Source: an uncultured bacterium
GTDB taxonomy: Bacteria; Fidelibacterota; Marinisomatia; Marinisomatales; TCS56
Assembly: GCA_964410945.1 (NCBI GenBank)
Contig: CAYPJE010000007.1
Span: 28,733-92,732, forward strand
Direction of reading: 5' to 3'
Length of the DNA: 64,000 nt
Below, piece after piece: positions 2,936 to 51,998 of this stretch (the stretch's first letter is position 1; every line of letters begins with the position of its first letter). Under the pieces are notes generated by a model. It did not search any database. It was not told the origin of the DNA and saw only the letters and a program-made list of their open reading frames with translations. The position numbers and the translations under genes were made by a program.

Positions 2936-5900
2936 ATGTCCGATAAACTCTATCCTATCCCGCTTGAGCGTCTTTTACCCTGGATAATGGCCGAGGAAAA
3001 ACAGGGCAGTATCTTTGGAATATCCAAAGAATTATTTTTTGTACCCCATATTGATCAGCCCTTTCGGATGAAACGTTATGGTCAGCTTCTTGAAAACCCG
3101 ATTGGTGTGGCGGCTGGCCCCCATACTCAATTGTCCCAAAATATAGTTGCTGCCTGGCTGACCGGCGCCCGGTATATTGAATTGAAAACCGTTCAGACCC
3201 TTGATGAGATTGAGGTTGTCAAACCCTGTATCGATATTCAGGATGAAGGCTATAACTGCGAATGGTCCCAGGAATTGAAATTGCGTCAGTCTTTTGATCA
3301 GTACCTCGATGCCTGGATTCTGGTCCATATCCTTCGTCATCACTGGGGATGGGAAGGTGATGGTCCCGGTGTCATTTTCAATATGAGCGTAGGTTATGAC
3401 ATGAATGGTATTTTAAATGCCAATGTACAGGAATTCCTTGATTCGATGGTTGGCTGCCAGTCAGAACTGGACAAGAAACTGAACCGGATCGAAAAGATAT
3501 ATCCGGGGATATCTCAGGTGGAAATACCCGGTAGAATCACCAATAACATCACCCTGTCAACCATGCATGGCTGCCCGCCGGATGAAATCGAGAAAATTGC
3601 CCGCTATCTGATCGAGGATCGCCATCTGCACACCACCGTAAAACTTAATCCGACATTACTGGGTCCGGAACATCTGAGAGAAATCATCAACGGCAAGCTG
3701 GGATTCCGCAATGTGGAGGTACCTGACATTGCCTTTGAACACGATTTGAAATATGAACAGGCATTGGCATTAATTCGTAACCTCACTGCAACCGCCGGAT
3801 TGAGTGGGGTGGAATTTGGATTGAAGCTCACCAATACCCTGGAAGTGCTGAACCGGAAACTGATTTTCCCGGACAGTGAGAAACAGGCCTATTTAAGTGG
3901 CCGGGCTCTGCACCCGATTTCAGTTAACCTGGCCAAACAGCTCCAGCATGCATTTGACGGGGAACTGGATATTTCTTTCTGTGCCGGTGCGGATTGCTAT
4001 AATGTATCCGATCTGGTAGCTTGCGGTGTTGCACCAGTCACTACCTGCTCTGATTTATTGAAGCCGGGAGGATACGGACGTCTGGCACAGTATATTGCTA
4101 ATCTGGAAGCAGATTTCCAGCATTACAAGGCCGGTTCAATCGATGAATTGATCATCAATTATTCCAGGCAGCGAATTGATTTACGCACTGCGATCCGGGC
4201 GAACCTCTCCACCTATGCTGATAAGGTGCTTGATTTGGCCCAATATCAGCGTCAGAAGCCCTTTTATCCCTCAATCAAGGGGCAACGCCCACTGGATTAT
4301 TTTGATTGCGTTTCAGCCCCCTGTGTGGAGACCTGTGCCGCCCACCAGGGTATACCGGATTATTTGTATCATTCAAGCCGGGGCGAATTCGATCTGGCTT
4401 ATGATGTAATTCTCCGGACCAATTCAATGCCGGCTGTGACCGGGTATGTCTGTGACCATCAGTGCCAGAATAAATGTACCCGCATTAATTATGACCGACC
4501 ACTAATGATCCGTGACATTAAACGCTTTGTTTCCGAAGACCAGGCCGGCCAGGAAACCAACAAACCCAAACCGGATAAAGGACGCAAAGCAGCCGTAGTC
4601 GGTGGTGGTCCCTCGGGAATTACCTGCGCATATTTCCTTGCTTTGGAAGGTTTTGAGGTAACACTTTATGAACATAGCCAAAGCTTGGGGGGGATGGTAT
4701 CGGGGATGATACCCTCATTCCGGCTGGGGGCAGAAAGTATCAGTAATGACCTGAATATGCTGGAAAGATCGGGCGTTCTGGTAAAGACCGGTCGACAAAT
4801 TTCCAGCAATGATTTTGATCGGCTGCGAAAGGAAAATAATTATATCTATCTGGCTGTGGGTGCCCAAAGCAGCAAACGCCTGGGGATCAGCGGGGAAGAT
4901 ACAGATGGGGTCCTTGATCCACTGGTTTTCCTGGCTGATGTGAAAACCGGAGATAACCTGCCGGCTGGGTCCGAAGTACTGATAATCGGCGGCGGGAATA
5001 CGGCCATGGATGCTGCCCGGACCGCCCGTCGTGCGGTCGGTGAACAGGGAAAGGTGACCATTGTATACCGCCGGACGATCGACCAGATGCCCGCCGACTG
5101 GGAGGAAGTGGCCGCCGCTCAAGCCGAGGGAATCGCTGTGCGGGAATTACTGGCACCTTTGAAAATCGAATCCGGTGGCGGAGGATTGGTTCTGACGGTA
5201 CAGAAAATGAAATTGGGCACCCCCGATTCCAGTGGCCGGTTGCGTCCGGTTCCAATCGATAGTGCTTATTCCAGCATTAGCGCCGATTACATCATTCCTG
5301 CCGTCGGGCAGGATGTGGAACTGGATTTCATGCCGGGCAATAAAATTAAAGTAGATCCTGAAACCCAACAGACTGATATGCCGGATGTCTACGCCGGTGG
5401 TGATGCGGTCCGGGGAGCCGATACCATTATCGGTGCTATTGCCGACGGACATAAGGCCGCCCGGAGCATCACACGCGCCGCAGGCTTTGAAGCGGATGAC
5501 AGCTTCAAACTATTGAAGGGAAAAGGGGATAGGGCTGATCAGCCGATACGGTTCGCCACCCGCGATTATGGCGATTTTGCGGAACATGATTATTCCGAAA
5601 TGCAGACGGCACCACAAAAAGTACTGTTGACGGCCGAACAGGCCAGAGCCGAAGCTTCCCGTTGTCTGTATTGTGACGAATTCTGTGATGTCTGTGTAAC
5701 TGTCTGTCCCAACCGGGCTAACCTGGCTTATCCGACTGAAATGATTGATGTTCCATTACCGGCTATTTCATCTGATGGTGCCGTTTCAGCCGAATCCAGA
5801 TTTGTTATTACTCAACCTGCTCAGATAGTAAACCTGGCTGAGCTGTGCAACGAATGTGGTAATTGTACTACTTTCTGTCCTACCAGCGGACGGCCTTTTG

Positions 5901-8837: not shown

Positions 8838-11119
8838 AAGTGATCGGAAAACCAACCGCCCGTGTGGACGGACCGGCCTTGTCGCGGGGTAAGCCTGTTT
8901 TTGCCGATGATATGTACCTGCCGGGAACACTGTACCTGAAAATTCTGCACAGCCCGGTAGCTCATGCCCGGATCAAATCAATCGATGCCGGCCGGGCCCT
9001 GGCACGTCATGGTGTGGTGGCGGTTTACACTCATGAGGATTTTCCGGTCCATTATTATACTACCGCCGGGCAAGGTTATCCTGAGCCGGGCCCCCGGGAT
9101 TACCGGATACTGGACGATACCGTTCGTTATGTGGGTGACCGGGTGGCGCTGATAGCAGCCGAATCACTGGAGCTTGCCGAGGCCGCTCTTAATGAAATTG
9201 AAGTGGAATACGAGGAATTACCATCCCTCCTGGATGCAGGTAAAGCGCGTTCCTCCGAAATTGTTATCCATCCGGAACAGGGGAAGACCGGAATCCATGA
9301 CGTTGAAAAAAACATAGCCGCCCATATCGAAGCGGAAGTTGGTGATGTAGAAAAGGCTTTCGAGGAATTGCCCCACGTTTTCCATGGGGAATACAGCACA
9401 CCGTTTGTCCAGCAGGCCCATATCGAACCCCATATCAGTCTGAGCTGGCTGGATGATGACGGCCGGATCGTGATCCGTACCGCTACCCAGGTGCCTTTTC
9501 ATGTCCGGCGGATCGTGGCTGAAGTGCTGGATATCCCGGTCCGGAAGATTCGGGTCATTAAACCGCGGATCGGTGGCGGCTTCGGCGGTAAACAGGAAAT
9601 ATTGAATGAAGAACTGGTGGCGGCGGTGACGCTGAAAACCGGTCGTCCGGCCCGGATCGAATATACCCGGGAAGAAGAATTTTATGCCGCCCGGACCCGC
9701 CATCCCCAGATCACCAAATTCAGGATCGGGGTGGATAATGAGTGTCGGGTCCAGGCCATCGACCTGGATATTCTGGAGAATACGGGTGCTTATGGCGCCC
9801 ATTCACTCACTGTGATGTCAGTGACGGCCCAGAAAGCATTATCGCTTTATCGGGCGCCCAACCTGCGGGTTTACGGTGATGCGGTTTATACCAACCTGCC
9901 GATCGCCGGGGCTTATCGCGGCTACGGCGCACCCCAGGGATTTTTCGGTTTGGAATCACTAATGGATGAAATTGCTGCTGAATTGGGGATCGATCCGGTG
10001 GAATTCCGGCATAAGAACTATGTGCAGGTGGATGATGATTTGCCCATCGCCGCCATCCTGGGCGAAGGCCGGGAGGGCTTCCCGGCCAAGGTGCGCTCCA
10101 CGGGAATGAAAGACTGCCTGGAGGAAGGCAGAACACTGATCGACTGGGAAGGCATTCGCAGTACTCCCAGGACGGGTGTGATCCGCCGTGGTGTCGGTGT
10201 GGCTGTGGTGGGACAGGGCTCCGGTATTCCCGGCATTGACATGGGATCAGTATTTATCAAGATGAATGAAGACGCCAGCTTTAACCTGTTGGTGGGTGCC
10301 ACCGATCTGGGAACTGGTTCCGATACGGTCCTGGCCCAGATCGCCGCCGAGGAAATCGGCGTGCCGGTAGAGCAGATCCTGGTCTATTCCAGTGACACGG
10401 ACCGTACACCGTTCGACACCGGCGCCTATGCTTCCAGCACGACCTACATCAGCGGTAACGCTGTAAAAAAGGCTGCCGCTGATGTGAAACGCCAAATCCT
10501 TGAACTGGGTAAAAAATTGTTGGGCGCCGGTGAGGCGGAAATTCGAGACCAGCAAGTTGTAGCCGCCGATGGAAGCAGTATTTCGTTCAAGGATATTTGC
10601 ATCAAAACTTTCTATACCGAAGAGCAGACCCAGATCATGTCCACGGCCAGTCATATGAGTTTCGATTCGCCTTCACCGTATAATGCCACTTTCGCCGATG
10701 TTTCTGTGGATACGGAAACCGGCCTGGTAACGGTGAACAAGGTTGTATCGGTGACCGATATCGGACAGGTAATCAATCCCCAGATGGCGGAAGGCCAGAC
10801 CGAAGGGGGGATACCCCAGGCCCTTGGTATGGCCCTGACCGAATTTATGGTCTTTGATGACCGGGGCCGGCCGATGAATACTGATTTCAATGATTATCAT
10901 ATTTACACTGCCATCGATATGCCGGAAATTGTGACCAGGTTTGTCCATACCAGCGAACCCACCGGCCCGTTTGGCGCCAAGGCGGCGGCGGAGATACCGA
11001 TTAACGGTCCCGCTCCGGCGGTGGTGAATGCGATCCATAATGCCTGCGGAGTGCGCATCAGGGAGCTGCCGGTAACGCCGGGGAAAATCCTTAACGGATT
11101 GGTGAGTAGTGAGAAGTAG
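8834..11119 (+). CDS. molybdopterin-binding large subunit of xanthine dehydrogenase-family hydroxylase
   Basis: MKVIGKPTARVDGPALSRGKPVFADD N-terminus, GGGFGGK, and GAYRGYGAPQG motifs. I chose the ATG at 8834 (ATGA coupling) over the listed 8792 extension. Length 761 aa. Confidence 0.9.
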   Translation: MKVIGKPTARVDGPALSRGKPVFADDMYLPGTLYLKILHSPVAHARIKSIDAGRALARHGVVAVYTHEDFPVHYYTTAGQGYPEPGPRDYRILDDTVRYVGDRVALIAAESLELAEAALNEIEVEYEELPSLLDAGKARSSEIVIHPEQGKTGIHDVEKNIAAHIEAEVGDVEKAFEELPHVFHGEYSTPFVQQAHIEPHISLSWLDDDGRIVIRTATQVPFHVRRIVAEVLDIPVRKIRVIKPRIGGGFGGKQEILNEELVAAVTLKTGRPARIEYTREEEFYAARTRHPQITKFRIGVDNECRVQAIDLDILENTGAYGAHSLTVMSVTAQKALSLYRAPNLRVYGDAVYTNLPIAGAYRGYGAPQGFFGLESLMDEIAAELGIDPVEFRHKNYVQVDDDLPIAAILGEGREGFPAKVRSTGMKDCLEEGRTLIDWEGIRSTPRTGVIRRGVGVAVVGQGSGIPGIDMGSVFIKMNEDASFNLLVGATDLGTGSDTVLAQIAAEEIGVPVEQILVYSSDTDRTPFDTGAYASSTTYISGNAVKKAAADVKRQILELGKKLLGAGEAEIRDQQVVAADGSSISFKDICIKTFYTEEQTQIMSTASHMSFDSPSPYNATFADVSVDTETGLVTVNKVVSVTDIGQVINPQMAEGQTEGGIPQALGMALTEFMVFDDRGRPMNTDFNDYHIYTAIDMPEIVTRFVHTSEPTGPFGAKAAAEIPINGPAPAVVNAIHNACGVRIRELPVTPGKILNGLVSSEK

Positions 11120-11176
11120 TTGGTGAGAAGTCAGCCGGCGGCTGACGGTGAGCCTTATTAATTCCTATCTTGATCT

Positions 11177-11247
11177 GTAGGGACAACACAGTGTGTTGTC
11201 CGAAATATGGAAAATAAAACCCGGACAAGTCGCTGACTTGTCCCTAC
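11177..11247. repeat. REPIN-like inverted REP doublet, copy 1
   Basis: GTAGGGACAA-cacagtgtg-TTGTCCG, a 18-nt A-rich linker, then CCGGACAA-gtcgctgac-TTGTCCCTAC. On the minus strand the right arm reads GTAGGGACAAGTCAGCGACTTGTCCGG. Confidence 0.8.
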
Positions 11248-11401
11248 GAATTGCCGGTGGTATGATTTAAAAATGACGGATGGAATGTGTAGGCCTGCAA
11301 TGGGCAAACCTTTAAGTAGTGCTAACTCAGGTTGGAATTAGTAATTAGTGAGAAGTCAGCCGGCGGCTGGCGGTGAGCTATATTAATTCCTATCTTGAAC
11401 T

Positions 11402-11470
11402 GTAGGGACAACACAGTGTGTTGTCCGAAAAAAGGAAAAACCCCCGGACAAGTCGCTGACCTGTCCCTGC
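11402..11470. repeat. REPIN-like inverted REP doublet, copy 2 (slightly decayed)
   Basis: Same architecture as copy 1. The right arm carries substitutions (gacCtgtccctGc). Confidence 0.75.
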
Positions 11471-11677
11471 GAATTGCTGGTGGTAACATATTAAAAGGCA
11501 AATGGAATTTATTGTGCCTGTAATGGCAAATCTGAAATTAGTGGCAACACAGGATTTAATCTTTTGCAAATTAGTAGGCTATCAGCCTTCGGCTGGCGGT
11601 GAGAATGATGTGTGTGGGTGACAATTCGGTAATTCATTATACCAACATGGCTGTTTACTTTTATCCATACCGGGTTT

Positions 11678-11748
11678 GTAGGGACAACACAGTGTGTTGT
11701 CCGTGAAATGTATAAAACACCCCGGACAAGTCACTGACTTGTCCCTAC
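11678..11748. repeat. REPIN-like inverted REP doublet, copy 3
   Basis: GTAGGGACAACACAGTGTGTTGTCCG ... CCGGACAAGTCACTGACTTGTCCCTAC, followed by the same GAATTGCCGGTGGTATGATTTAAAAATGACGGATGGAAT tail as copy 1. Confidence 0.8.
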
Positions 11749-11830
11749 GAATTGCCGGTGGTATGATTTAAAAATGACGGATGGAATTGCCGTGTGGGTT
11801 AGGGGATTGGCAGGTCGAAGGGGCCGGCTT

Positions 11831-12226
11831 GTCCGTACCATCTGTGTGTAATGCCCGTTCCACAGCGATTGACCGTCCGTTCCGGGGGGTGGGAACGGGC
11901 ATTCCGATGGTACAGACCGCGTGTTCTCAGGGATGAGAACGTGCATTCCAATGCCACAGACCGTGTGTTCCCGGGGGCTCGACCGCACGTTCCGGGGGTA
12001 TAGACTACACGGTCGATAGCATGCGAATGCATGCTCGGACCGACCCGAGCGTATGTTCTGCCCCCTCCAAGTGTGTACTAGTGACCACCCGAGTGTGTGC
12101 TCTGACCATTCCGAGTGCATGCTCAAGACCATCCGAGTGCACACTCGGCACCCATCGATCGCCCACCCGAACCCCTGCGAGTACACATACGCGTGCCAAT
12201 ATAGTGCCAGGCACATCCGATCGATT
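11831..12226. repeat. GC-rich array of 18 consecutive degenerate 22-bp units (array A)
   Basis: The stretch parses without any indel into 22-mers. Examples: gggcattccgatggtacagacc / gcgtgttctcagggatgagaac / gtgcattccaatgccacagacc / gtgtgttcccgggggctcgacc ... gtgtactagtgaccacccgagt / gtgtgctctgaccattccgagt / gcatgctcaagaccatccgagt. 15 of 18 units start with G plus an alternating purine-pyrimidine run. Confidence 0.85.
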
Positions 12227-12246
12227 ATCTATTTAATTCCAGATTT

Positions 12247-12317
12247 GTAGGGACAACACAGTGTGTTGTCCGAAATATGGAAAATAAAACCCGGACAAAT
12301 CACTGACTTGTCCCTAC
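12247..12317. repeat. REPIN-like inverted REP doublet, copy 4
   Basis: The core differs from copy 1 at only 2 positions (ggacaaAtcActgac). It is preceded by TTAATTCC, as are copies 1 and 2. Confidence 0.8.
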
Positions 12318-12429
12318 GAATTGCTTTGATAAATCAGTGGATTATTTCAATCCTCTATTACATAGCCAATGGATTTATCCGTGGGTTTACAGAATTGGTG
12401 CTGAAAGAACCGTTACAACGGTTTAAATA

Positions 12430-12930
12430 TTATTGATTCCGGTTCACAGGCCGTCTGATCAGGCTCATCAATACCAGTCCGATGGCGCCGGTCATTATCA
12501 AAACATCGGCCACGTTGAAAATTCCTGTCCGCAGGGGACCGATCCCCATGTTCATAAAATCGATTACCCGACCGTCGTTGAACAGACGGTCGATCATATT
12601 GCTGATCCCGCCGCCGATCAGCAGGGCCATCATCAGTGATTCGAACCGGGTCAGCTTAGTGCTGAAAATCGTGAAGGCCAGCATCCCCAGAAGAGCGATG
12701 GTAGGAAATATCCGCATCAGCCAGAATTTGATACCCTCCGGCAGTTCCGACCCCAGGCTCAGGAAACCACCGGTATTCTCGGCGTAGTGGAAACGGAAGG
12801 TATCAAAGAAATAAGAGTGGGAGGAATAACCGCGCAGATTATCCCGGGCCACCACTTTCGTTACCTGGTCACAGCCAACACAGACCAGCAGAATAATCAA
12901 TATCACCAATACTCTTCTGTATCTAATCAT
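12430..12930 (-). CDS. lspA: lipoprotein signal peptidase (signal peptidase II)
   Basis: The DQVTK, YAENTGGFLSLG and FNVADVLIMTGA blocks are LspA signatures, with four hydrophobic segments. Start set at MIRYRRVLVILI (12930) rather than the listed 13053 extension. Confidence 0.85.
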   Translation of the reverse strand: MIRYRRVLVILIILLVCVGCDQVTKVVARDNLRGYSSHSYFFDTFRFHYAENTGGFLSLGSELPEGIKFWLMRIFPTIALLGMLAFTIFSTKLTRFESLMMALLIGGGISNMIDRLFNDGRVIDFMNMGIGPLRTGIFNVADVLIMTGAIGLVLMSLIRRPVNRNQ

Positions 12931-12934
12931 CTGG

Positions 12935-13318
12935 CTAACCCGTACCTGACAACCAGTTCTCGGCAGCTTCAAGCGATCGAAATACATGAAAATTAAATAT
13001 AAGGTTTTCGGCTGTTCCCATCTCAAACATCCTGCTAATTCCAAAATCAACATCTTTTTCCACTACCCAGGCAGCCCGGCCTGGGCCACGAATTTTTTCG
13101 TATTTGGCAGTCATTTTTCCAATATCTTCTAAGCCCTTTTGATCCAGTCCGGATAGTGAGCATTGTCGACAATCCCAGATAATATCGATTCCCGGTTTCC
13201 ACATGTCCCAGTCCAGCATTTCCTGATAGCAGGATTCGAGGCTATCCAGATTGAATTTCTCGTAAAGACTGATCGTCAGATAATCTTTGAAAGAATTAAA
13301 ATGTATCTCATATTTCAT
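12935..13318 (-). CDS. hypothetical protein (about 127 aa, no motif I can name)
   Basis: ORF directly upstream of lspA on the same strand with a 4-nt gap. Start set at MKYEIHF (13318). The listed N-terminal extension lacks coding character. Confidence 0.5.
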   Translation of the reverse strand: MKYEIHFNSFKDYLTISLYEKFNLDSLESCYQEMLDWDMWKPGIDIIWDCRQCSLSGLDQKGLEDIGKMTAKYEKIRGPGRAAWVVEKDVDFGISRMFEMGTAENLIFNFHVFRSLEAAENWLSGTG

Positions 13319-13553
13319 TGAAATTTGTCTCAGGCCGTTTAGTATTGACTCAATTCCACAGTGATGTGCATTTCCAACGTATGGTAGATTATACTGACTT
13401 AAACCAAACTCCAAATGATTTTATTCTGATGGCGGGTACAATGAAACCGTTCAGACAAATATATTCTCCTCTTAAAATATCAATCCACATAGTTAAATTA
13501 TCTCTGTCAGGGATAAGATTATTAAGTGTTTAAAGATAATTAAGAGACGAATA

Positions 13554-16511
13554 ATGGCTAGAAGAATTTCTGTTTGGTGTGCTTTACTTTCACTCCTGTC
13601 CGCCCAAATAAATCCAGTGGAAGGAATCCGCTCAAATCCACCACGAATATGGGCACTGACCAACGCTACTGTAGTCACTGAGCCAGGAAAGATACTGGAA
13701 GATGCCAGCATCCTGATCAGAGATGGCCTGATCGAGTCGGTTGGAAGGGATATTGCCTTACCACCGGATGCGACGATACTCGATTATTCCGGCAATACGG
13801 TTTATCCCGGTTTTATTGACAGCTGGCTTCCGGTAGACCAGTCTGAGAACGGTGGTGCGTCCTCCAGGGCGCATTGGAATTCTTTTGTACGTGCCGATAT
13901 GGTGACCAGCCGGTTATATAAACCGGATAATGAGCATTTGAAATCTTTGCATGGATTGGGATTTACAGCGGCTCAGGTAGTTGGTGAAAAAGGCATTTTC
14001 CGTGGATTTGGCGGGGTGGTGCTGTTGACCAACCAGGCAACAACGCTTGTGGATCAATCAGCCCAGGTTGTTTCTATTGAATTTGGTCGCTACCAATCAA
14101 CCGATTATCCTAAATCCGAGTTTGGTTCCATCGCACTGATCCGCCAGACTTTACTTGATGCCGACTGGTACCGGGCCGCTAATACCATTTATGAAAAATA
14201 TCCCAATCTGAATGAACCGGTCCCCGTCAATAATGCCTTGGAAGCGATTGGATCGGCACGGAACAGGCGACTACCCTTTATTTTCATCCCGAAAGAGGAG
14301 CAAGGTCTGCTGCAGGCCGGTAAAATCGCCGCAGAATTCAACTTGCCGTTCTACGTAAGGGGAACTGGTTATGAGTACCGGAGAGCGCGGGAAATAGCAT
14401 TGACCAATCCATTTCTGATCCTCGATCTGAAATTTCCGGAAGCCCCGGCGATTAGTGATCGGCTTGGCGCCAGGGAAATTACCACGGAACAACTCAAGCA
14501 CTGGAAACTGGGCCCGGACAACGTAAAGCGGATGCTGGAAAATGAGGTGTCAGTGGCTCTGACCTGCGATGGCTTGAAGGATCAGCAATTCCGGATCAAC
14601 CTGGCCAGGGCTGTAAAGCAGGGTTTGGATAAAACCGCGGCCCTGGCAGCCATGACCACCATCCCGGCTGAGAAGTTAGGCATTGGTAACAGCATTGGTA
14701 AAATAGCTCCTGGTTTGGTTGCTAATCTGACTGTAGTTGCTGGCGATTATTTCAATCCTGATGATCCGTTGCATGCCGTTTGGATCGGTGGCGATGAATA
14801 CACACTCGAAGATAAAAATATTAAAGATATCTCAGGTGCATGGAAAGTAATATTAGATGATAAAAACTATGACTTAAAGTTATTATTTAAAGGTGGTAAA
14901 TGGTCAGGATCAATCGAAAGTGACAGTATTACAGTCCCGCTTAAACAGTTGGTCCATAACAACCGGATGATCAAATTTGTTGCTTCCACAAATGAATTGG
15001 GATGGGCAGGTATTACCCGTTTCAGCGGCCGGATCAGGGATGGAGAGCTGCTTCTGACGGCGACTTTACCAGCCGGGGACAAGACTGCCATGGTGGCCAC
15101 AGCTGTGTCATCCCCGGAACCGGATAAGCCGGAACCGGATAAGGAAATATCAAAGGTCTTTGCGAGTTTTCCGGAGGGTGCTTTTGGATTCGAGGAATTA
15201 CCCGTACCGGAACCGGTTATATTGGTCAATGACGCCACTATCTGGACCTGCGGCCGACAGGGTATCCTCAAGGGCTGGGATATGCTGGTGGTAAATGGAA
15301 AGATAGACCGGATCGCCCAGGATATAGCTTACCCGTCCGGTGGGGCATTGGTAGTTGACGCCGGAGGAAAACATGTTACTCCGGGGATAATCGACAGCCA
15401 TAGTCATACTGCCACCCGTTCCGTTAATGAAGGCACCCACAGCAATACGGCCGAAGTTCGGATTGCTGATGTACTGGATGCCGATGATATCAATATCTAC
15501 CGCCAGTTGGCAGGCGGGGTAACTGCAATCCATGTTCTGCATGGATCGGCTAATACAATTGGTGGGCAGAATGCCGTCATCAAAATGCGGTGGGGGAGTG
15601 TAGCTGACGATCTGCTGTTGAAAGGAGCACCACCGGGACTGAAATTCGCCCTCGGTGAAAATGTTAAACAATCAGGTTGGGGGGATCGGTTTGTGACCCG
15701 GTACCCGCAAACCAGGATGGGCGTGGAGCAGTACCTGCGGGATAATTTTGAGGCCGCCCGGGATTATCGGGCCGAGTTCAAGCGCTTTGAGCGTAATTCC
15801 CGCCTGAGAAAGACTAAGATTCCACCGCGGATCGATCTGTCAATGGAGGCAGTTGCTGAAGTTCTGGAGGACAAACGGCTCATGCATTGCCATGCCTATC
15901 GGCAGGATGAAATGCTGATGTTATTAAGACTGGCCGAGGAATTTGATTTCACAATGGATATGTTTCATCACGGACTGGAAGGCTACAAAATTGCCGATGA
16001 AATGGCAAAGCATGGAGCTGGGGTAGCGACTTTCACTGACTGGTGGGCTTATAAATTTGAAGTTTACGAAGCAATTCCCTATGCCGCCGGTCTCATGCAC
16101 GAAATTGGCGTAAGTGTTTCATTAAAATCCGACAGTGATGAATTGGCGCGGCATCTGAATACCGAAGCCGCCAAGGTGGTAAAATACAGTGGGATATCCG
16201 AGGAGGAGGCGTTTAAAATGATAACGATCAACTCCGCCCGTCAGCTTGGGATTGACCGCCATGTTGGTTCCCTGGAACCAGGTAAGGATGCTGATTTTGT
16301 GATCTGGAATACCAATCCTTTATCAACCAGTGCCGTGTGCCAGGAAACCTGGATTGATGGTGCCTTATACTTTTCCGTTGAACGCGACCGGGAATTGCGG
16401 GCAGCAGAGGCTGTTCTGCGGAATGACCTCATACAGAAGATTCTACTGGAACAGAACGGTGGTATCGGTAAGGAGAACGATGGATCCAAAGGGGCAGGAG
16501 GTGCATTATGA
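13554..16511 (+). CDS. secreted two-module amidohydrolase-family protein
   Basis: Signal peptide MARRISVWCALLSLLSAQ. The C-terminal module has the canonical VTPGIIDSHSHTA metal site plus EPGKDADFVIW. The N-terminal module has the same fold signature but reads VYPGFIDSWLP, with no HxH. Confidence 0.8.
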   Translation: MARRISVWCALLSLLSAQINPVEGIRSNPPRIWALTNATVVTEPGKILEDASILIRDGLIESVGRDIALPPDATILDYSGNTVYPGFIDSWLPVDQSENGGASSRAHWNSFVRADMVTSRLYKPDNEHLKSLHGLGFTAAQVVGEKGIFRGFGGVVLLTNQATTLVDQSAQVVSIEFGRYQSTDYPKSEFGSIALIRQTLLDADWYRAANTIYEKYPNLNEPVPVNNALEAIGSARNRRLPFIFIPKEEQGLLQAGKIAAEFNLPFYVRGTGYEYRRAREIALTNPFLILDLKFPEAPAISDRLGAREITTEQLKHWKLGPDNVKRMLENEVSVALTCDGLKDQQFRINLARAVKQGLDKTAALAAMTTIPAEKLGIGNSIGKIAPGLVANLTVVAGDYFNPDDPLHAVWIGGDEYTLEDKNIKDISGAWKVILDDKNYDLKLLFKGGKWSGSIESDSITVPLKQLVHNNRMIKFVASTNELGWAGITRFSGRIRDGELLLTATLPAGDKTAMVATAVSSPEPDKPEPDKEISKVFASFPEGAFGFEELPVPEPVILVNDATIWTCGRQGILKGWDMLVVNGKIDRIAQDIAYPSGGALVVDAGGKHVTPGIIDSHSHTATRSVNEGTHSNTAEVRIADVLDADDINIYRQLAGGVTAIHVLHGSANTIGGQNAVIKMRWGSVADDLLLKGAPPGLKFALGENVKQSGWGDRFVTRYPQTRMGVEQYLRDNFEAARDYRAEFKRFERNSRLRKTKIPPRIDLSMEAVAEVLEDKRLMHCHAYRQDEMLMLLRLAEEFDFTMDMFHHGLEGYKIADEMAKHGAGVATFTDWWAYKFEVYEAIPYAAGLMHEIGVSVSLKSDSDELARHLNTEAAKVVKYSGISEEEAFKMITINSARQLGIDRHVGSLEPGKDADFVIWNTNPLSTSAVCQETWIDGALYFSVERDRELRAAEAVLRNDLIQKILLEQNGGIGKENDGSKGAGGAL

Positions 16512-38825: not shown

Positions 38826-39360
38826 CCGCCTTCGCAGAAGACCACGCCTGCGTGCCGAAAACAGCTACGTCGTGCAGGCACGGGCTCGCCCGTGGGGCTC
38901 CATCACAGAACAAGGATTAACGAATGATGAATTATGAAGTTTTGGCAATGAGAGTCGGGATGGAAAATTCTAAAATCGATATTCCCTGTTGGTTGTTCTG
39001 AAATTGAAAGAGGTTTGTAAAAAGGATACCTCCACCCGTGCACGACACGCCTGTGCATCGAAGTTGAAATGTAGATGTACCGTGCCCCTACGATGATTTA
39101 TGATTTGAGATTCTCGATGTATTTTGACTATTAGACCAGAATGAAAAGTATCAATATTATTACGAGCGCAGCGAAGCAATCTTTCCGGTCGTTGCCAGGG
39201 GAAGTAAATATCTCCATCTATGTTCCATTACTGTAACTACGATGGATAAAGCTTTGTTGTTCAATTTATCCACTCAGCACGAGGACATGGGGGCTCTGTC
39301 AATTGAGAGATTTCCACTTCGGGGACAAGTTCGCGAGACCAAGCGAAAGTGCGGTCTGTA

Positions 39361-39602
39361 CTGCTAAAATGACCGTTTGGGCCAAGTGAAATGGTCGATT
39401 GGGCTAAGTATAACGACCGTTTGGGTCAGCTGGAACGGTCGTTTGAGTGTGGTAAAAAGCACAATTGACCTGGCTAAAACGCCCTTTTGGGTATGGTAAA
39501 ACGGACGATTGGGTATGGTAAAATGCACGATTGGGTATGGTAAAATGCACGATTGGGTCAGCTAAAACGGTCGTTTGAGCGCGGTAAAACGTACGGTCCG
39601 GC
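39361..39602. repeat. array of 11 consecutive 22-bp tandem units (array B)
   Basis: ctgctaaaatgaccgtttgggc / caagtgaaatggtcgattgggc / ... / atggtaaaacggacgattgggt / atggtaaaatgcacgattgggt (x2, identical) / cagctaaaacggtcgtttgagc / gcggtaaaacgtacggtccggc. Exact register with no indels. Confidence 0.85.
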
Positions 39603-39628
39603 TGGTTGAGACACCGGAAAAAGACAGA

Positions 39629-50021: not shown

Positions 50022-51998
50022 ATGGCCAGGCGTTTCTTTGCGGGAGTTCTTTTTCTATTTACTGCCCTTTCAGCGGCTCAAGTTGACACGGTTACCGCGG
50101 TCAGCTATGCCATGGATCGGGAAATGACCACGGTGGTGGTGACACCGGAGGATTATCAGGATAGCCAGACTGAATTCCCGGTGGTTTATATTCTTCATGG
50201 CTACAGCGGTGGTCCTTTTGACTGGATTAATCATATGGATCTGAGGACGCTTGCTGATCTGCACCAGTTCATTCTGGTCTGTCCCGATGGTGATTATAAC
50301 AGCTGGTATTTTGACAGTCCACTGGTAAAAAAGAGCCAGTATGCCACCTGGGTCGGGCGGGAGTTGGTGCGCTGGATCGATGATAATTATCCTACAGTCG
50401 ACCGACAGGACGGCCGGGCCATAACCGGTCTGAGTATGGGGGGACACGGTGCCCTTTATCTGACGCTGCAGAATCCCGAACAGTATTGCGCCGCCGCTAC
50501 CATGAGTGGTGTAGTGGACCTGACAGCTACTACCAAGAAATATGAACTGGCTGAAAAGATCGGTTCATACGAAAAGAATCCGGAGCGTTGGAACCAGGGT
50601 TCACTGGTCGAACAGGTTCCGTCCCTGGCAGAGCTTGATATAGGTCTGCTAATCGATTGCGGAACCGAGGATGCCTTTATCGAACACAATCGTGATCTGC
50701 ACCAGCGGCTGGAAGCGGCCGGCGTGGAGCACAATTATATTGAGAAACCCGGGGGGCACAGTTGGGATTACTGGACCGCAGCTTTGCCGGAACATCTGGA
50801 TTATTTCACCAGATATATTGATCGTGAGCCGGAAATCGAACCAATCGACCAACGGGCTGCCAATCTTATGTGTCTGATGGAACAGGCCATCTCCGATTCA
50901 GCCTGGCCCGGCGGGGTTCTGCTGGCCCGGAGTAAGGGTGAGACGATCGTATTTGATGCCACCGGTTACCATACCTACGACCGCAAAATAAGCACCCGCC
51001 GTGATGATATCTTCGATCTGGCATCGATCACAAAAGTCATTTCCACCACCTCGGCAGCAGCCAAACTGCATGAAAACGGCCTGCTTGTCCTGGACGCAAA
51101 AGTCGTGCAATACATTCCTGAATTCAGGGGTAAGAAATTTTTCAGGGATCGTGCCAAAAAACAGGTCACGGTGAAACATCTGCTGACCCATACCACCGGT
51201 TTACCACCCTTCAAGCAGTACTACAGGATTGATGGTTCAATCGAGGACCGTGTGGCGGAAATCTTTGCTACCAGTCTGGACCGGAAACCAGGATTGAAAA
51301 CGGTTTATTCCGATATTGGAATAATTACCATGGGAAAAATCGTCGAACAGCTCACGGGAATGGGACTGGACGAATATGTTGATCAAGAGGTATTTACACC
51401 ACTGGGAATGGCTGCCACCGGTTATACGCCCTGTAAGAGAAAACTGTATCGGATCGTGCCGACCGAAATCGATCCGGATGGCAAATTAGTTCATGGTTAT
51501 GTCCACGATGAAAATGCTAACAGCCTGGGTGGCGTGGCCGGCCATGCGGGATTGTTTTCCACCGCCGAAGATCTGGCCCGTTTTGCCCGGATGATGCTGA
51601 ACGAAGGAGAACTTGACGACATCCGGATTTTCCAACCGGAGACGGTGGAACTGTTTACGAAGCGAGCCAACGTAATCGAAGGCAGTTCGCGCTGCCTGGG
51701 CTGGGACAGTCCCAGCGATAATGCCTCCGGCGGGGTCTACATCAGTGATAACGCTTTCGGGCACACCGGATTTACCGGGACGTCGCTGTGGATCGATCCC
51801 GATAACGATATCGTGGTTGTTCTGCTGACCAATGCTGTTCATCCGAACCGCTCCTGGAAATCGCCGAATTATTTTGACTGGCGCCAGCGGATTCATTCCG
51901 CTGTTTATGAAGAGCTGGGCTTCGATGTTCAGAATCCAAATCTGACCTGGCGCCAGCGCTGGCAATCTGCCGAATCAACAGATGATTCAACACAATAG
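50022..51998 (+). CDS. secreted fusion of esterase-D-type alpha/beta hydrolase and beta-lactamase-family serine hydrolase
   Basis: Signal peptide MARRFFAGVLFLFTALSAAQ. The N-terminal half has GLSMGGHGA (GxSxG) and the C-terminal half has ASITKVIST (SxxK) and HTGFTG. ATG at 50022 after GGGAGA. Confidence 0.8.
   Translation: MARRFFAGVLFLFTALSAAQVDTVTAVSYAMDREMTTVVVTPEDYQDSQTEFPVVYILHGYSGGPFDWINHMDLRTLADLHQFILVCPDGDYNSWYFDSPLVKKSQYATWVGRELVRWIDDNYPTVDRQDGRAITGLSMGGHGALYLTLQNPEQYCAAATMSGVVDLTATTKKYELAEKIGSYEKNPERWNQGSLVEQVPSLAELDIGLLIDCGTEDAFIEHNRDLHQRLEAAGVEHNYIEKPGGHSWDYWTAALPEHLDYFTRYIDREPEIEPIDQRAANLMCLMEQAISDSAWPGGVLLARSKGETIVFDATGYHTYDRKISTRRDDIFDLASITKVISTTSAAAKLHENGLLVLDAKVVQYIPEFRGKKFFRDRAKKQVTVKHLLTHTTGLPPFKQYYRIDGSIEDRVAEIFATSLDRKPGLKTVYSDIGIITMGKIVEQLTGMGLDEYVDQEVFTPLGMAATGYTPCKRKLYRIVPTEIDPDGKLVHGYVHDENANSLGGVAGHAGLFSTAEDLARFARMMLNEGELDDIRIFQPETVELFTKRANVIEGSSRCLGWDSPSDNASGGVYISDNAFGHTGFTGTSLWIDPDNDIVVVLLTNAVHPNRSWKSPNYFDWRQRIHSAVYEELGFDVQNPNLTWRQRWQSAESTDDSTQ

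Follow-up and report, generated by a model that had tools for sequence, protein, structure and literature searches.

Inverted doublets of GTAG-flanked hairpins, probably of the REPIN type and locally reiterated, between xdhA and an lspA-like gene of an uncultured bacterium

The window analyzed here is the whole stretch of DNA, 64 kb in length. It contains a 1.3-kb gap between two convergent genes: xdhA, which encodes a molybdopterin subunit of the xanthine-dehydrogenase type on the plus strand and ends at 11119, and, on the minus strand, an lspA-like gene, which encodes a signal peptidase II and ends at 12430. The gap is occupied by a cluster of four hairpin doublets, and from 11115 to about 11790 units of ~225 bp follow each other head to tail. 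The following features were found in this gap.

11115–11339 (plus strand): tandem unit 1 (~225 bp), containing the last bases and the stop codon of xdhA, a hairpin at 11130–11146, doublet 1, and a downstream flank of ~90 bp
11177–11247 (plus strand): doublet 1, with the left REP at 11177–11202 (GTAG plus a 9-bp stem and a 3-nt loop), the linker at 11203–11221, and the inverted right REP at 11222–11247; followed by GAATTGC at 11248–11254
11213–11243 (minus strand): terminator-like site from a terminator consensus scan, the right-arm hairpin followed by GGGTTTTATT
11340–11565 (plus strand): tandem unit 2 (~226 bp), which repeats unit 1 in diverged form and contains a hairpin at 11355–11371 and doublet 2
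11402–11470 (plus strand): doublet 2, 69 bp, with an intact left REP and a 17-nt linker
11466–11446 (minus strand): equivalent terminator-like site, same scan
11566–11790 (plus strand): tandem unit 3, with a hairpin at 11581–11597 (same stem, altered loop), a segment at 11604–11676 that has been replaced, and doublet 3
11678–11748 (plus strand): doublet 3, with two intact arms and a divergent linker (11/19 identical to copy 1)
11744–11724 (minus strand): equivalent terminator-like site, same scan
11834–12160: degenerate GC-rich (56–63%) array with a 22-bp period, between doublets 3 and 4
12247–12317 (plus strand): doublet 4, with a core identical to copy 1 at 69 of 71 positions
12313–12293 (minus strand): equivalent terminator-like site, same scan

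No credible ORF overlapping the doublets was found among the ORFs of the window, the overlapping ones being short or implausible. The 161-aa ORF over the GC-rich array has no Pfam match and an implausible composition, and its C-terminal end is REP-encoded. Annotators should be warned that spurious ORFs of 42–161 aa are called across the doublet region. The source organism encodes T9SS sorting domains, which make it probably a member of the FCB group. By exact-protein look-ups, the organism was found in Logan metagenome contigs only, and these contigs end exactly at the REP arm at the site of copy 4; short-read assemblies of this organism break at the locus because of the doublet element. In the relatives of XdhA (65–73% identity), synteny is kept upstream and not downstream, and for this reason there is no orthologous empty site.

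The earlier note on this DNA had described four elements of ~71 bp, built from two REPs of the same type in inverted orientation. All four were found in place, copy 2 being 69 bp long, and their GTAG-hairpin arms do form inverted doublets. The left arm, GTAGGGACAACACAGTGTGTTGTCCG, is identical at 26 of 26 positions in all four copies, and on the minus strand the right arm reads GTAGGGACAAGTCAG[C/T]GA[C/T]TTGTCCG. The 26-nt arms are separated by A-rich linkers of 19, 17, 19, and 19 nt (copies 1–4, respectively), and GAATTGC stands immediately 3' of the right arm in each of the copies. GTAG with a 9-bp stem and a 3-nt loop was found in seven of the eight arms; when each arm folds in this way, the 5' GTAG stays unpaired. 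The eighth arm, the right REP of doublet 2, is decaying: a T>C substitution in the stem leaves one A.C mismatch, and GTAG has become GCAG. Thus, the substitutions reported earlier for copy 2 are present, as are the two differences reported between cores 1 and 4 (2 of 71 positions by our count). In the 64-kb window, the pattern GGGACAA-N7-11-TTGTCC has seven matches against 0.01 expected from shuffles, and all seven are at the doublet locus; substitutions keep the remaining arm, on the right of copy 2, from matching this strict pattern.

The alternative folds proposed earlier are about equal in energy: -17.2 kcal/mol when the doublet forms a single long hairpin and -16.9 kcal/mol when it forms a pair of hairpins. 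The z-score against shuffles is about -6. Across the doublets, the minimum free energy of the long hairpin ranges from -14 to -20 kcal/mol (z = -3.9 to -6.7). The arms are 81–83% complementary to each other across a spacer of 17–19 nt. Their inner stems differ (CAC/GTG vs. GTC/GAC), yet each arm remains self-complementary, which marks selection as acting on structure and not on a duplex binding site.

The repeat in copies 1–3 extends beyond the 71 bp described earlier and comprises a unit of ~225 bp including flanks. Similarity of unit 1 to unit 2 begins at about 11098, with an upstream identity of 54/60; the upstream part common to copies 1 and 2 includes the last codons of xdhA, the stop codon, and the small hairpin GTCAGCCGGCGGCTGAC, and these copies also have ~90 downstream bases in common. 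The downstream flank of unit 3 resembles that of unit 1 (43 of 47 positions identical between copies 3 and 1). The copies resemble each other in a mosaic manner: all of them have the left arm at 100% identity, and which flank is common varies by copy pair. The linkers are identical at 11–13 of 19 positions among the copies, but at 19 of 19 between copies 1 and 4. This mosaic pattern points to tandem duplication together with gene conversion. Judged from the sequence, copies 1–3 are local tandem duplicates and not separate insertions, and since they have common flanks, at most two independent events would be needed. The four copies within 1.15 kb reported earlier are thus present, but they do not represent four insertions. 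If so, the locus is an example of a REP cluster growing through tandem duplication of a doublet plus its flank instead of through repeated insertion.

Of the four doublets, only doublet 4 seems to stand apart from the tandem unit. Its flanks are unrelated to those of the other copies, except that GAATTGC is present on its right side and a loose TTAATTCC...T on its left side. The spacer before it is ~440 bp long and GC-rich, and the array inside this spacer is not REP-like; a tblastn search for a RAYT remnant between copies 3 and 4 gave noise alone. Near-identical doublets in unrelated flanks, as looked for in a REPIN unit, were found in one pair only (copies 1 and 4, 69/71).

The arms have the form of GTAG-type REPs, with GTAG beside a stem of 5–13 bp and a loop of 2–20 nt, and their position is likewise extragenic, 3' of genes and between convergent genes in the xdhA/lspA-like gap. 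The doublets also have the form of REPINs: two inverted REPs, a short spacer, and one possible long hairpin. In a comparative study (Di Nocera, De Gregorio & Rocco, 2013; PMC3733652), GTAG-tagged REPs are described in several phyla, with an unpaired terminal GTAG beside a stem of 6–13 bp with a short loop, and mainly as HH dimers in which the tags are outside and the spacer is fairly conserved (20–100 bp; 17–19 nt here). The same study describes heterodimers whose partners have unlike stems or loops, a preferred location in gaps where the neighboring genes are convergent or co-directional, and clusters formed by dimers tandemly reiterated together with flanking DNA. All of these traits apply to the doublets of the window, which have differing partners, lie between convergent genes, and form a tandem cluster with flanks. 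One difference from that study is the host, here an uncultured T9SS bacterium, probably of the FCB group, and not a proteobacterium. The stem-loop GGGACAA-CACAGTGTG / GTCAGCGAC was not found in the text of that paper or in its available supplements, and a literature search for the exact doublet sequence returned nothing relevant.

Three other known systems were compared with the doublets. Like REPINs in the literature on REPINs and RAYTs (Nunvar et al., 2010, PMC2817692; Bertels and Rainey, 2011, PMC3116915; Messing et al., 2012, PMC3479197; Ton-Hoang et al., 2012), the elements are inverted REP doublets of ~70 bp that can fold into one long hairpin. They have a GTAG located 5' of the hairpin, the feature that E. 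coli TnpA-REP recognizes and cleaves. Unlike in REPINs, most of the local copies stem from segmental duplication, and not from a REPIN replicating as a whole. BIMEs of E. coli also have REPs in alternating orientation with short linkers, located extragenically at gene 3' ends. However, BIMEs are contiguous REP-linker-REP arrays with defined IHF- or gyrase-binding linkers, whereas here 150–500 bp of non-REP DNA lie between doublets, and the linker, read by eye, has no apparent IHF-type motif. Miniature elements derived from IS200/IS605 (PATEs) follow the same HUH/Y1 superfamily logic, with single-stranded DNA hairpins as recognition elements, but the doublets carry the GTAG of the RAYT type and have no IS200 left-end or right-end structures.

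Dispersed GTAG-type REPs are present in tens to thousands of copies per genome, and the RAYT gene is usually flanked by the same REPs. Species-representative genomes were scanned for the pattern GTAGGGACAA-N9-TTGTCC, and among the matches listed, at least 141 occurrences were found in at least 119 loci, all of them in other organisms. The pattern has 16 fixed bases and ~1.2e12 positions were scanned, so that ~280 matches are expected by chance in the whole collection and raw counts mean little. Structural features of the listed matches are more informative. The stem is extended inward by at least two pairs in 121 of these 141 matches, against ~14% by chance, and 37 of the 141 have an inverted GTAG partner within 130 nt, forming doublets of 53–127 bp. 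Base pairing thus identifies the listed matches as real hairpins. Matches are spread over 4–6 contigs per MAG in Gemmataceae DAIOGM01, Planctomycetota VGZI01 and JACQFG01, CAYRBN01, and CAMFFI01. The loops of the window doublets are absent from all of the other-genome matches listed.

All ORFs of the fetched loci were searched by phmmer with E. coli RayT as the query, and the best matches directly adjoin REPs of this type. In a WOR-3 MAG (L042), the RAYT gene has REP doublets on both sides and is interrupted in frame by a REP pair; with this insert removed, the gene scores 97.7 bits on the NCBIfam model REP_Tyr_transpos (cut-off 80). In a Chloroflexota MAG (L041), the end of the ORF is at a GTAGGGACAA...TTGTCCCTAC hairpin, and the truncated ORF scores 78.4 bits against the same cut-off of 80. 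In a Clostridia MAG (L114), two REPs precede the gene and a third is located within it; truncated or interrupted, the gene scores 66.7 bits (cut-off 80). As in REPIN/RAYT systems, the same REP type thus flanks RAYT-class genes in all three genomes, and the mutual identity of the RAYTs linked to it is 22–29%. Because the best RayT matches in other genomes adjoin these REPs, the GTAGGGACAA/TTGTCC REP type is RAYT-associated at the family level.

In the source organism, the REP family was found at one locus in ~74 kb, comprising the window and ~9.5 kb of Logan contig extensions; the extensions contain no further copy. Searches of the window and extensions by phmmer and tblastn, for which E. coli RayT and three RAYTs from MAGs served as queries, gave no RAYT-like ORF. 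One RayT match at 51144–51365 (E = 0.004) was rejected as a chance match, being antisense to a beta-lactamase-domain gene, with stops inside and a stop at the catalytic Tyr. An exact pattern covering both arms had no matches in JGI metagenomes. When the doublet was translated in six frames and the concatenated product was compared with 5.8 billion proteins, four word candidates were obtained, none of which scored; blastn against plasmids gave no match, and a scan of viral sequences gave seven unrelated single matches. The results for the ~74 kb, the JGI metagenomes, and the proteins are weak negatives: a family that is a relic or has few copies would fit them, and a moderate population is also possible.

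The explanation that we consider probable is that the doublets are REPIN-type heterodimers of GTAG REPs, locally reiterated, with a RAYT encoded elsewhere and a secondary role at RNA 3' ends. This agrees with the reading of the earlier note, which had called them REPIN/BIME-like GTAG doublets: the anatomy fits, and the same hairpin type is dispersed and RAYT-adjacent in other genomes. The doublets would be non-autonomous single-stranded DNA hairpin elements of the kind recognized by RAYT (TnpA-REP) HUH/Y1 enzymes. One or two original insertions between xdhA and the lspA-like gene may have been followed by unequal recombination or slippage that reiterated the ~225-bp block (doublet plus flank) three times, and gene conversion may have kept some parts of the copies identical. 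The mobilizing RAYT, if any, would be encoded elsewhere in the genome and would not be the IS200-like Y1 gene located 8 kb away. The anatomy, the local tandem structure, the family-level link to RAYT genes of other genomes, and the non-RAYT nature of the local Y1 protein are shown directly, whereas mobility in the source genome, the existence of its RAYT, and the terminator or stabilizer role are inferred. As a counterpoint to REPIN mobility, three of the four copies would require no transposition.

In one alternative, the locus is a purely local hairpin-bearing 3' region, a terminator or insulator that was tandemly duplicated and homogenized by gene conversion, was never mobile, and resembles REPs by convergence. 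The common flanks of copies 1–3 in ~225-bp tandem units agree with it, as do the single motif locus in ~74 kb, the JGI metagenome scan and peptide search that gave no further copy, and the minus-strand terminator-like sites at all copies. It does not account well for copy 4, where a core identical at 69 of 71 positions is located within unrelated flanks. Moreover, GTAG, the outer GGACAA/TTGTCC stem, and the inverted layout all match dispersed RAYT-linked elements, for which convergence is an improbable origin. We consider this purely local origin unlikely.

A second alternative keeps the REP ancestry of the doublets. A single widely shared REP lineage, GTAG-GGACAA/TTGTCC, would extend from Firmicutes to Planctomycetota, candidate phyla of the FCB group, and CPR MAGs, with RAYTs of ~25% identity, and would survive here as an array that has no RAYT, amplifies locally, and has been exapted to serve as a terminator or insulator. 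We regard this as distinctly unlikely; if true, the array would be a REPIN population kept by recombination instead of by transposition.

At the RNA level, the preferred REPIN-type reading includes possible roles on both strands. On the minus strand, a 9-bp hairpin followed by a T-run similar to GGGTTTTATT is present in every doublet, the first one 117 nt downstream of lspA, and the doublets account for four of the five terminator-like sites found by the consensus scan in 10800–13700. On the plus strand, a doublet is usable only as a long 3' hairpin after xdhA, because the linker is A-rich there; such a hairpin could stabilize the xdhA message. Each of the two substitutions in right-arm stems results in G.U when the minus strand is read and in A.C when the plus strand is read (2/2, p = 0.25), which is suggestive but not significant. 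A secondary terminator role on the minus strand is plausible from the consensus scan.

The same minus-strand hairpin and T-run in each unit, together with promoter-like plus-strand sites in copies 1 and 3 and strong predicted folds, could also mean that the ~225-bp units are tandem small-RNA genes, with the REP-like hairpin and T-run as a terminator on the minus strand or TTGTCC-N17-TATGAT as a promoter on the plus strand. However, no Rfam family was found at gathering thresholds in the whole window or with E-value thresholds; a scan of the region gave only sub-threshold chance matches of 24–27 bits to a miRNA hairpin model, for which the gathering score is 90. Bacteroidetes-type promoter boxes are absent. 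The left arm changes more slowly than the segments between doublets, part of unit 3 has been replaced, and there is no such unit at all around copy 4. Small-RNA genes are thus a very unlikely explanation.

The Y1 transposase gene at 2424–2870, located 8.3 kb upstream of the doublets, had been considered in the earlier note as a possible source of a partner enzyme, with the caution that another hairpin family flanks it and that its protein should be classified as RAYT or IS200 TnpA. The caution was justified and the partnership is not supported. The hairpins next to this gene, AACCCYGGARGGGTT at 2066, 2349, and 2400, are all three upstream of it, are of a different family, and have no GTAG. The protein scores 80.4 bits on the IS200 TnpA model (cut-off 55) and 26.4 bits on the RAYT model (cut-off 80), its PDB matches are IS200/IS605 TnpAs only, and it was not matched by phmmer with E. 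coli RayT. The RAYT motifs WQxRF.DH..R and YIxxNPV are absent from it, and a relative found in locus L065 is likewise without flanking GTAG REPs. Profile scores, PDB matches, and motifs thus all assign the protein to the IS200 type and not to RAYTs, and by these measures it is not the partner enzyme of the doublets. The idea that the doublets are miniature IS200-like derivatives mobilized by this protein draws on its proximity and on the use of subterminal single-stranded DNA hairpins by IS200/IS605 enzymes, which is established (PMC6006769); with the GTAG-less hairpins, the IS200 scores, the missing motifs, and the L065 relative all against it, we find it highly improbable.

Finally, integron attC-like recombination sites (a CALIN array of imperfect single-stranded DNA hairpins) would likewise give imperfect 70-bp palindromes in the same orientation, spaced by 225–569 bp and folding into long hairpins, but they have next to no chance of being the explanation, as the R' GTTRRRY and R'' RYYYAAC core sites are absent from the doublet termini, where GTTGTCC has pyrimidines at positions requiring purines, ORF-bearing cassettes between the copies are absent, and no integrase gene was found among the window proteins checked.

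The doublets add one uncultured lineage, probably of the FCB group, to the hosts of GTAG-type REPs and REPINs, which carries little wider biological weight. A separate observation was made in the other genomes: this 16-base REP shell, and 25-mers that are almost identical, are found repeatedly beside divergent RAYT genes in distant phyla, and this recurrence may merit a dedicated survey.

Near-identical 25-mers of the form GTAGGGACAACCCTTG[C/T]GGTTGTCC were found in 50 of the 141 hits among the matches listed from the pattern scan of genome contigs (loci L002-L119). The MAGs carrying these 25-mers are labelled as Clostridia, Bacteroides, Chloroflexia, Zixiibacteriota, WOR-3, Stahlbacteria, and Saccharibacteria; additionally, a close variant, GTAGGGACAACTCTCGTGGTTGTCC, is carried by a Nanoarchaeota MAG (L049). 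This range of MAGs is unusually wide for a single REP sequence and may be explained by horizontal transfer or by binning contamination.

Two of the loci contain RAYT genes flanked by REP doublets:
L042, WOR-3 MAG JAGMCL010000119.1, 668-1558: RAYT gene flanked by GTAGGGACAA REP doublets
L114, Clostridia MAG JAWXUR010000074.1, 6305-7384: RAYT gene flanked by GTAGGGACAA REP doublets

In both genes, the coding sequence is also interrupted by the gene's own REP type. Thus, the enzyme thought to mobilise these REPs has REP insertions in its own gene. The interruption in the WOR-3 gene is a 93-nt in-frame insertion located immediately past the HUH motif.

Further repeat-associated features were found in the window:
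2424-2870: IS200-like Y1 gene, inside an AT-rich 950-bp insert (1985-2935)
11834-12160: GC-rich array with a 22-bp period, between REP doublets 3 and 4
39365-39606: second array with a 22-bp period, about 11 units of TAAAACGGTCGATTGGGTATGG

The insert with the Y1 gene separates the gene for the xdh FAD-binding subunit from ygfK. Three related hairpins (2066-2080, 2349-2363, and 2400-2414) were found near the Y1 gene, all of them upstream and none downstream. This arrangement of gene and hairpins recurs in contigs of at least four samples.

Both tandem arrays are degenerate and intergenic. They share the 22-bp period, and each has an ACGGTC/GACCGT core; the arrays could therefore be iteron-like protein-binding arrays or members of a single minisatellite family.

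The terminal ~7 codons of xdhA (…LVSSEK*, 11098-11119) lie within the tandemly repeated unit, and the C-termini of xdhA homologues vary in length and sequence; the tail may therefore have been remodelled by the repeat. In the metagenome contig L153, encoding an XdhA with 57% identity, three arms of another GTAG REP type, GTAGGGGCGATTCATGAATCGCCC, are located at 3057-3209, with the xdhA homologue ~100 bp upstream of them.

GC-rich hairpins were also found in window segment 38830-39100, together with GTAGGGGCACGG at 39091 (minus strand). This segment may contain a second, degenerate repeat family or may be variable between strains. All Logan contigs with groEL stop near position 38854.
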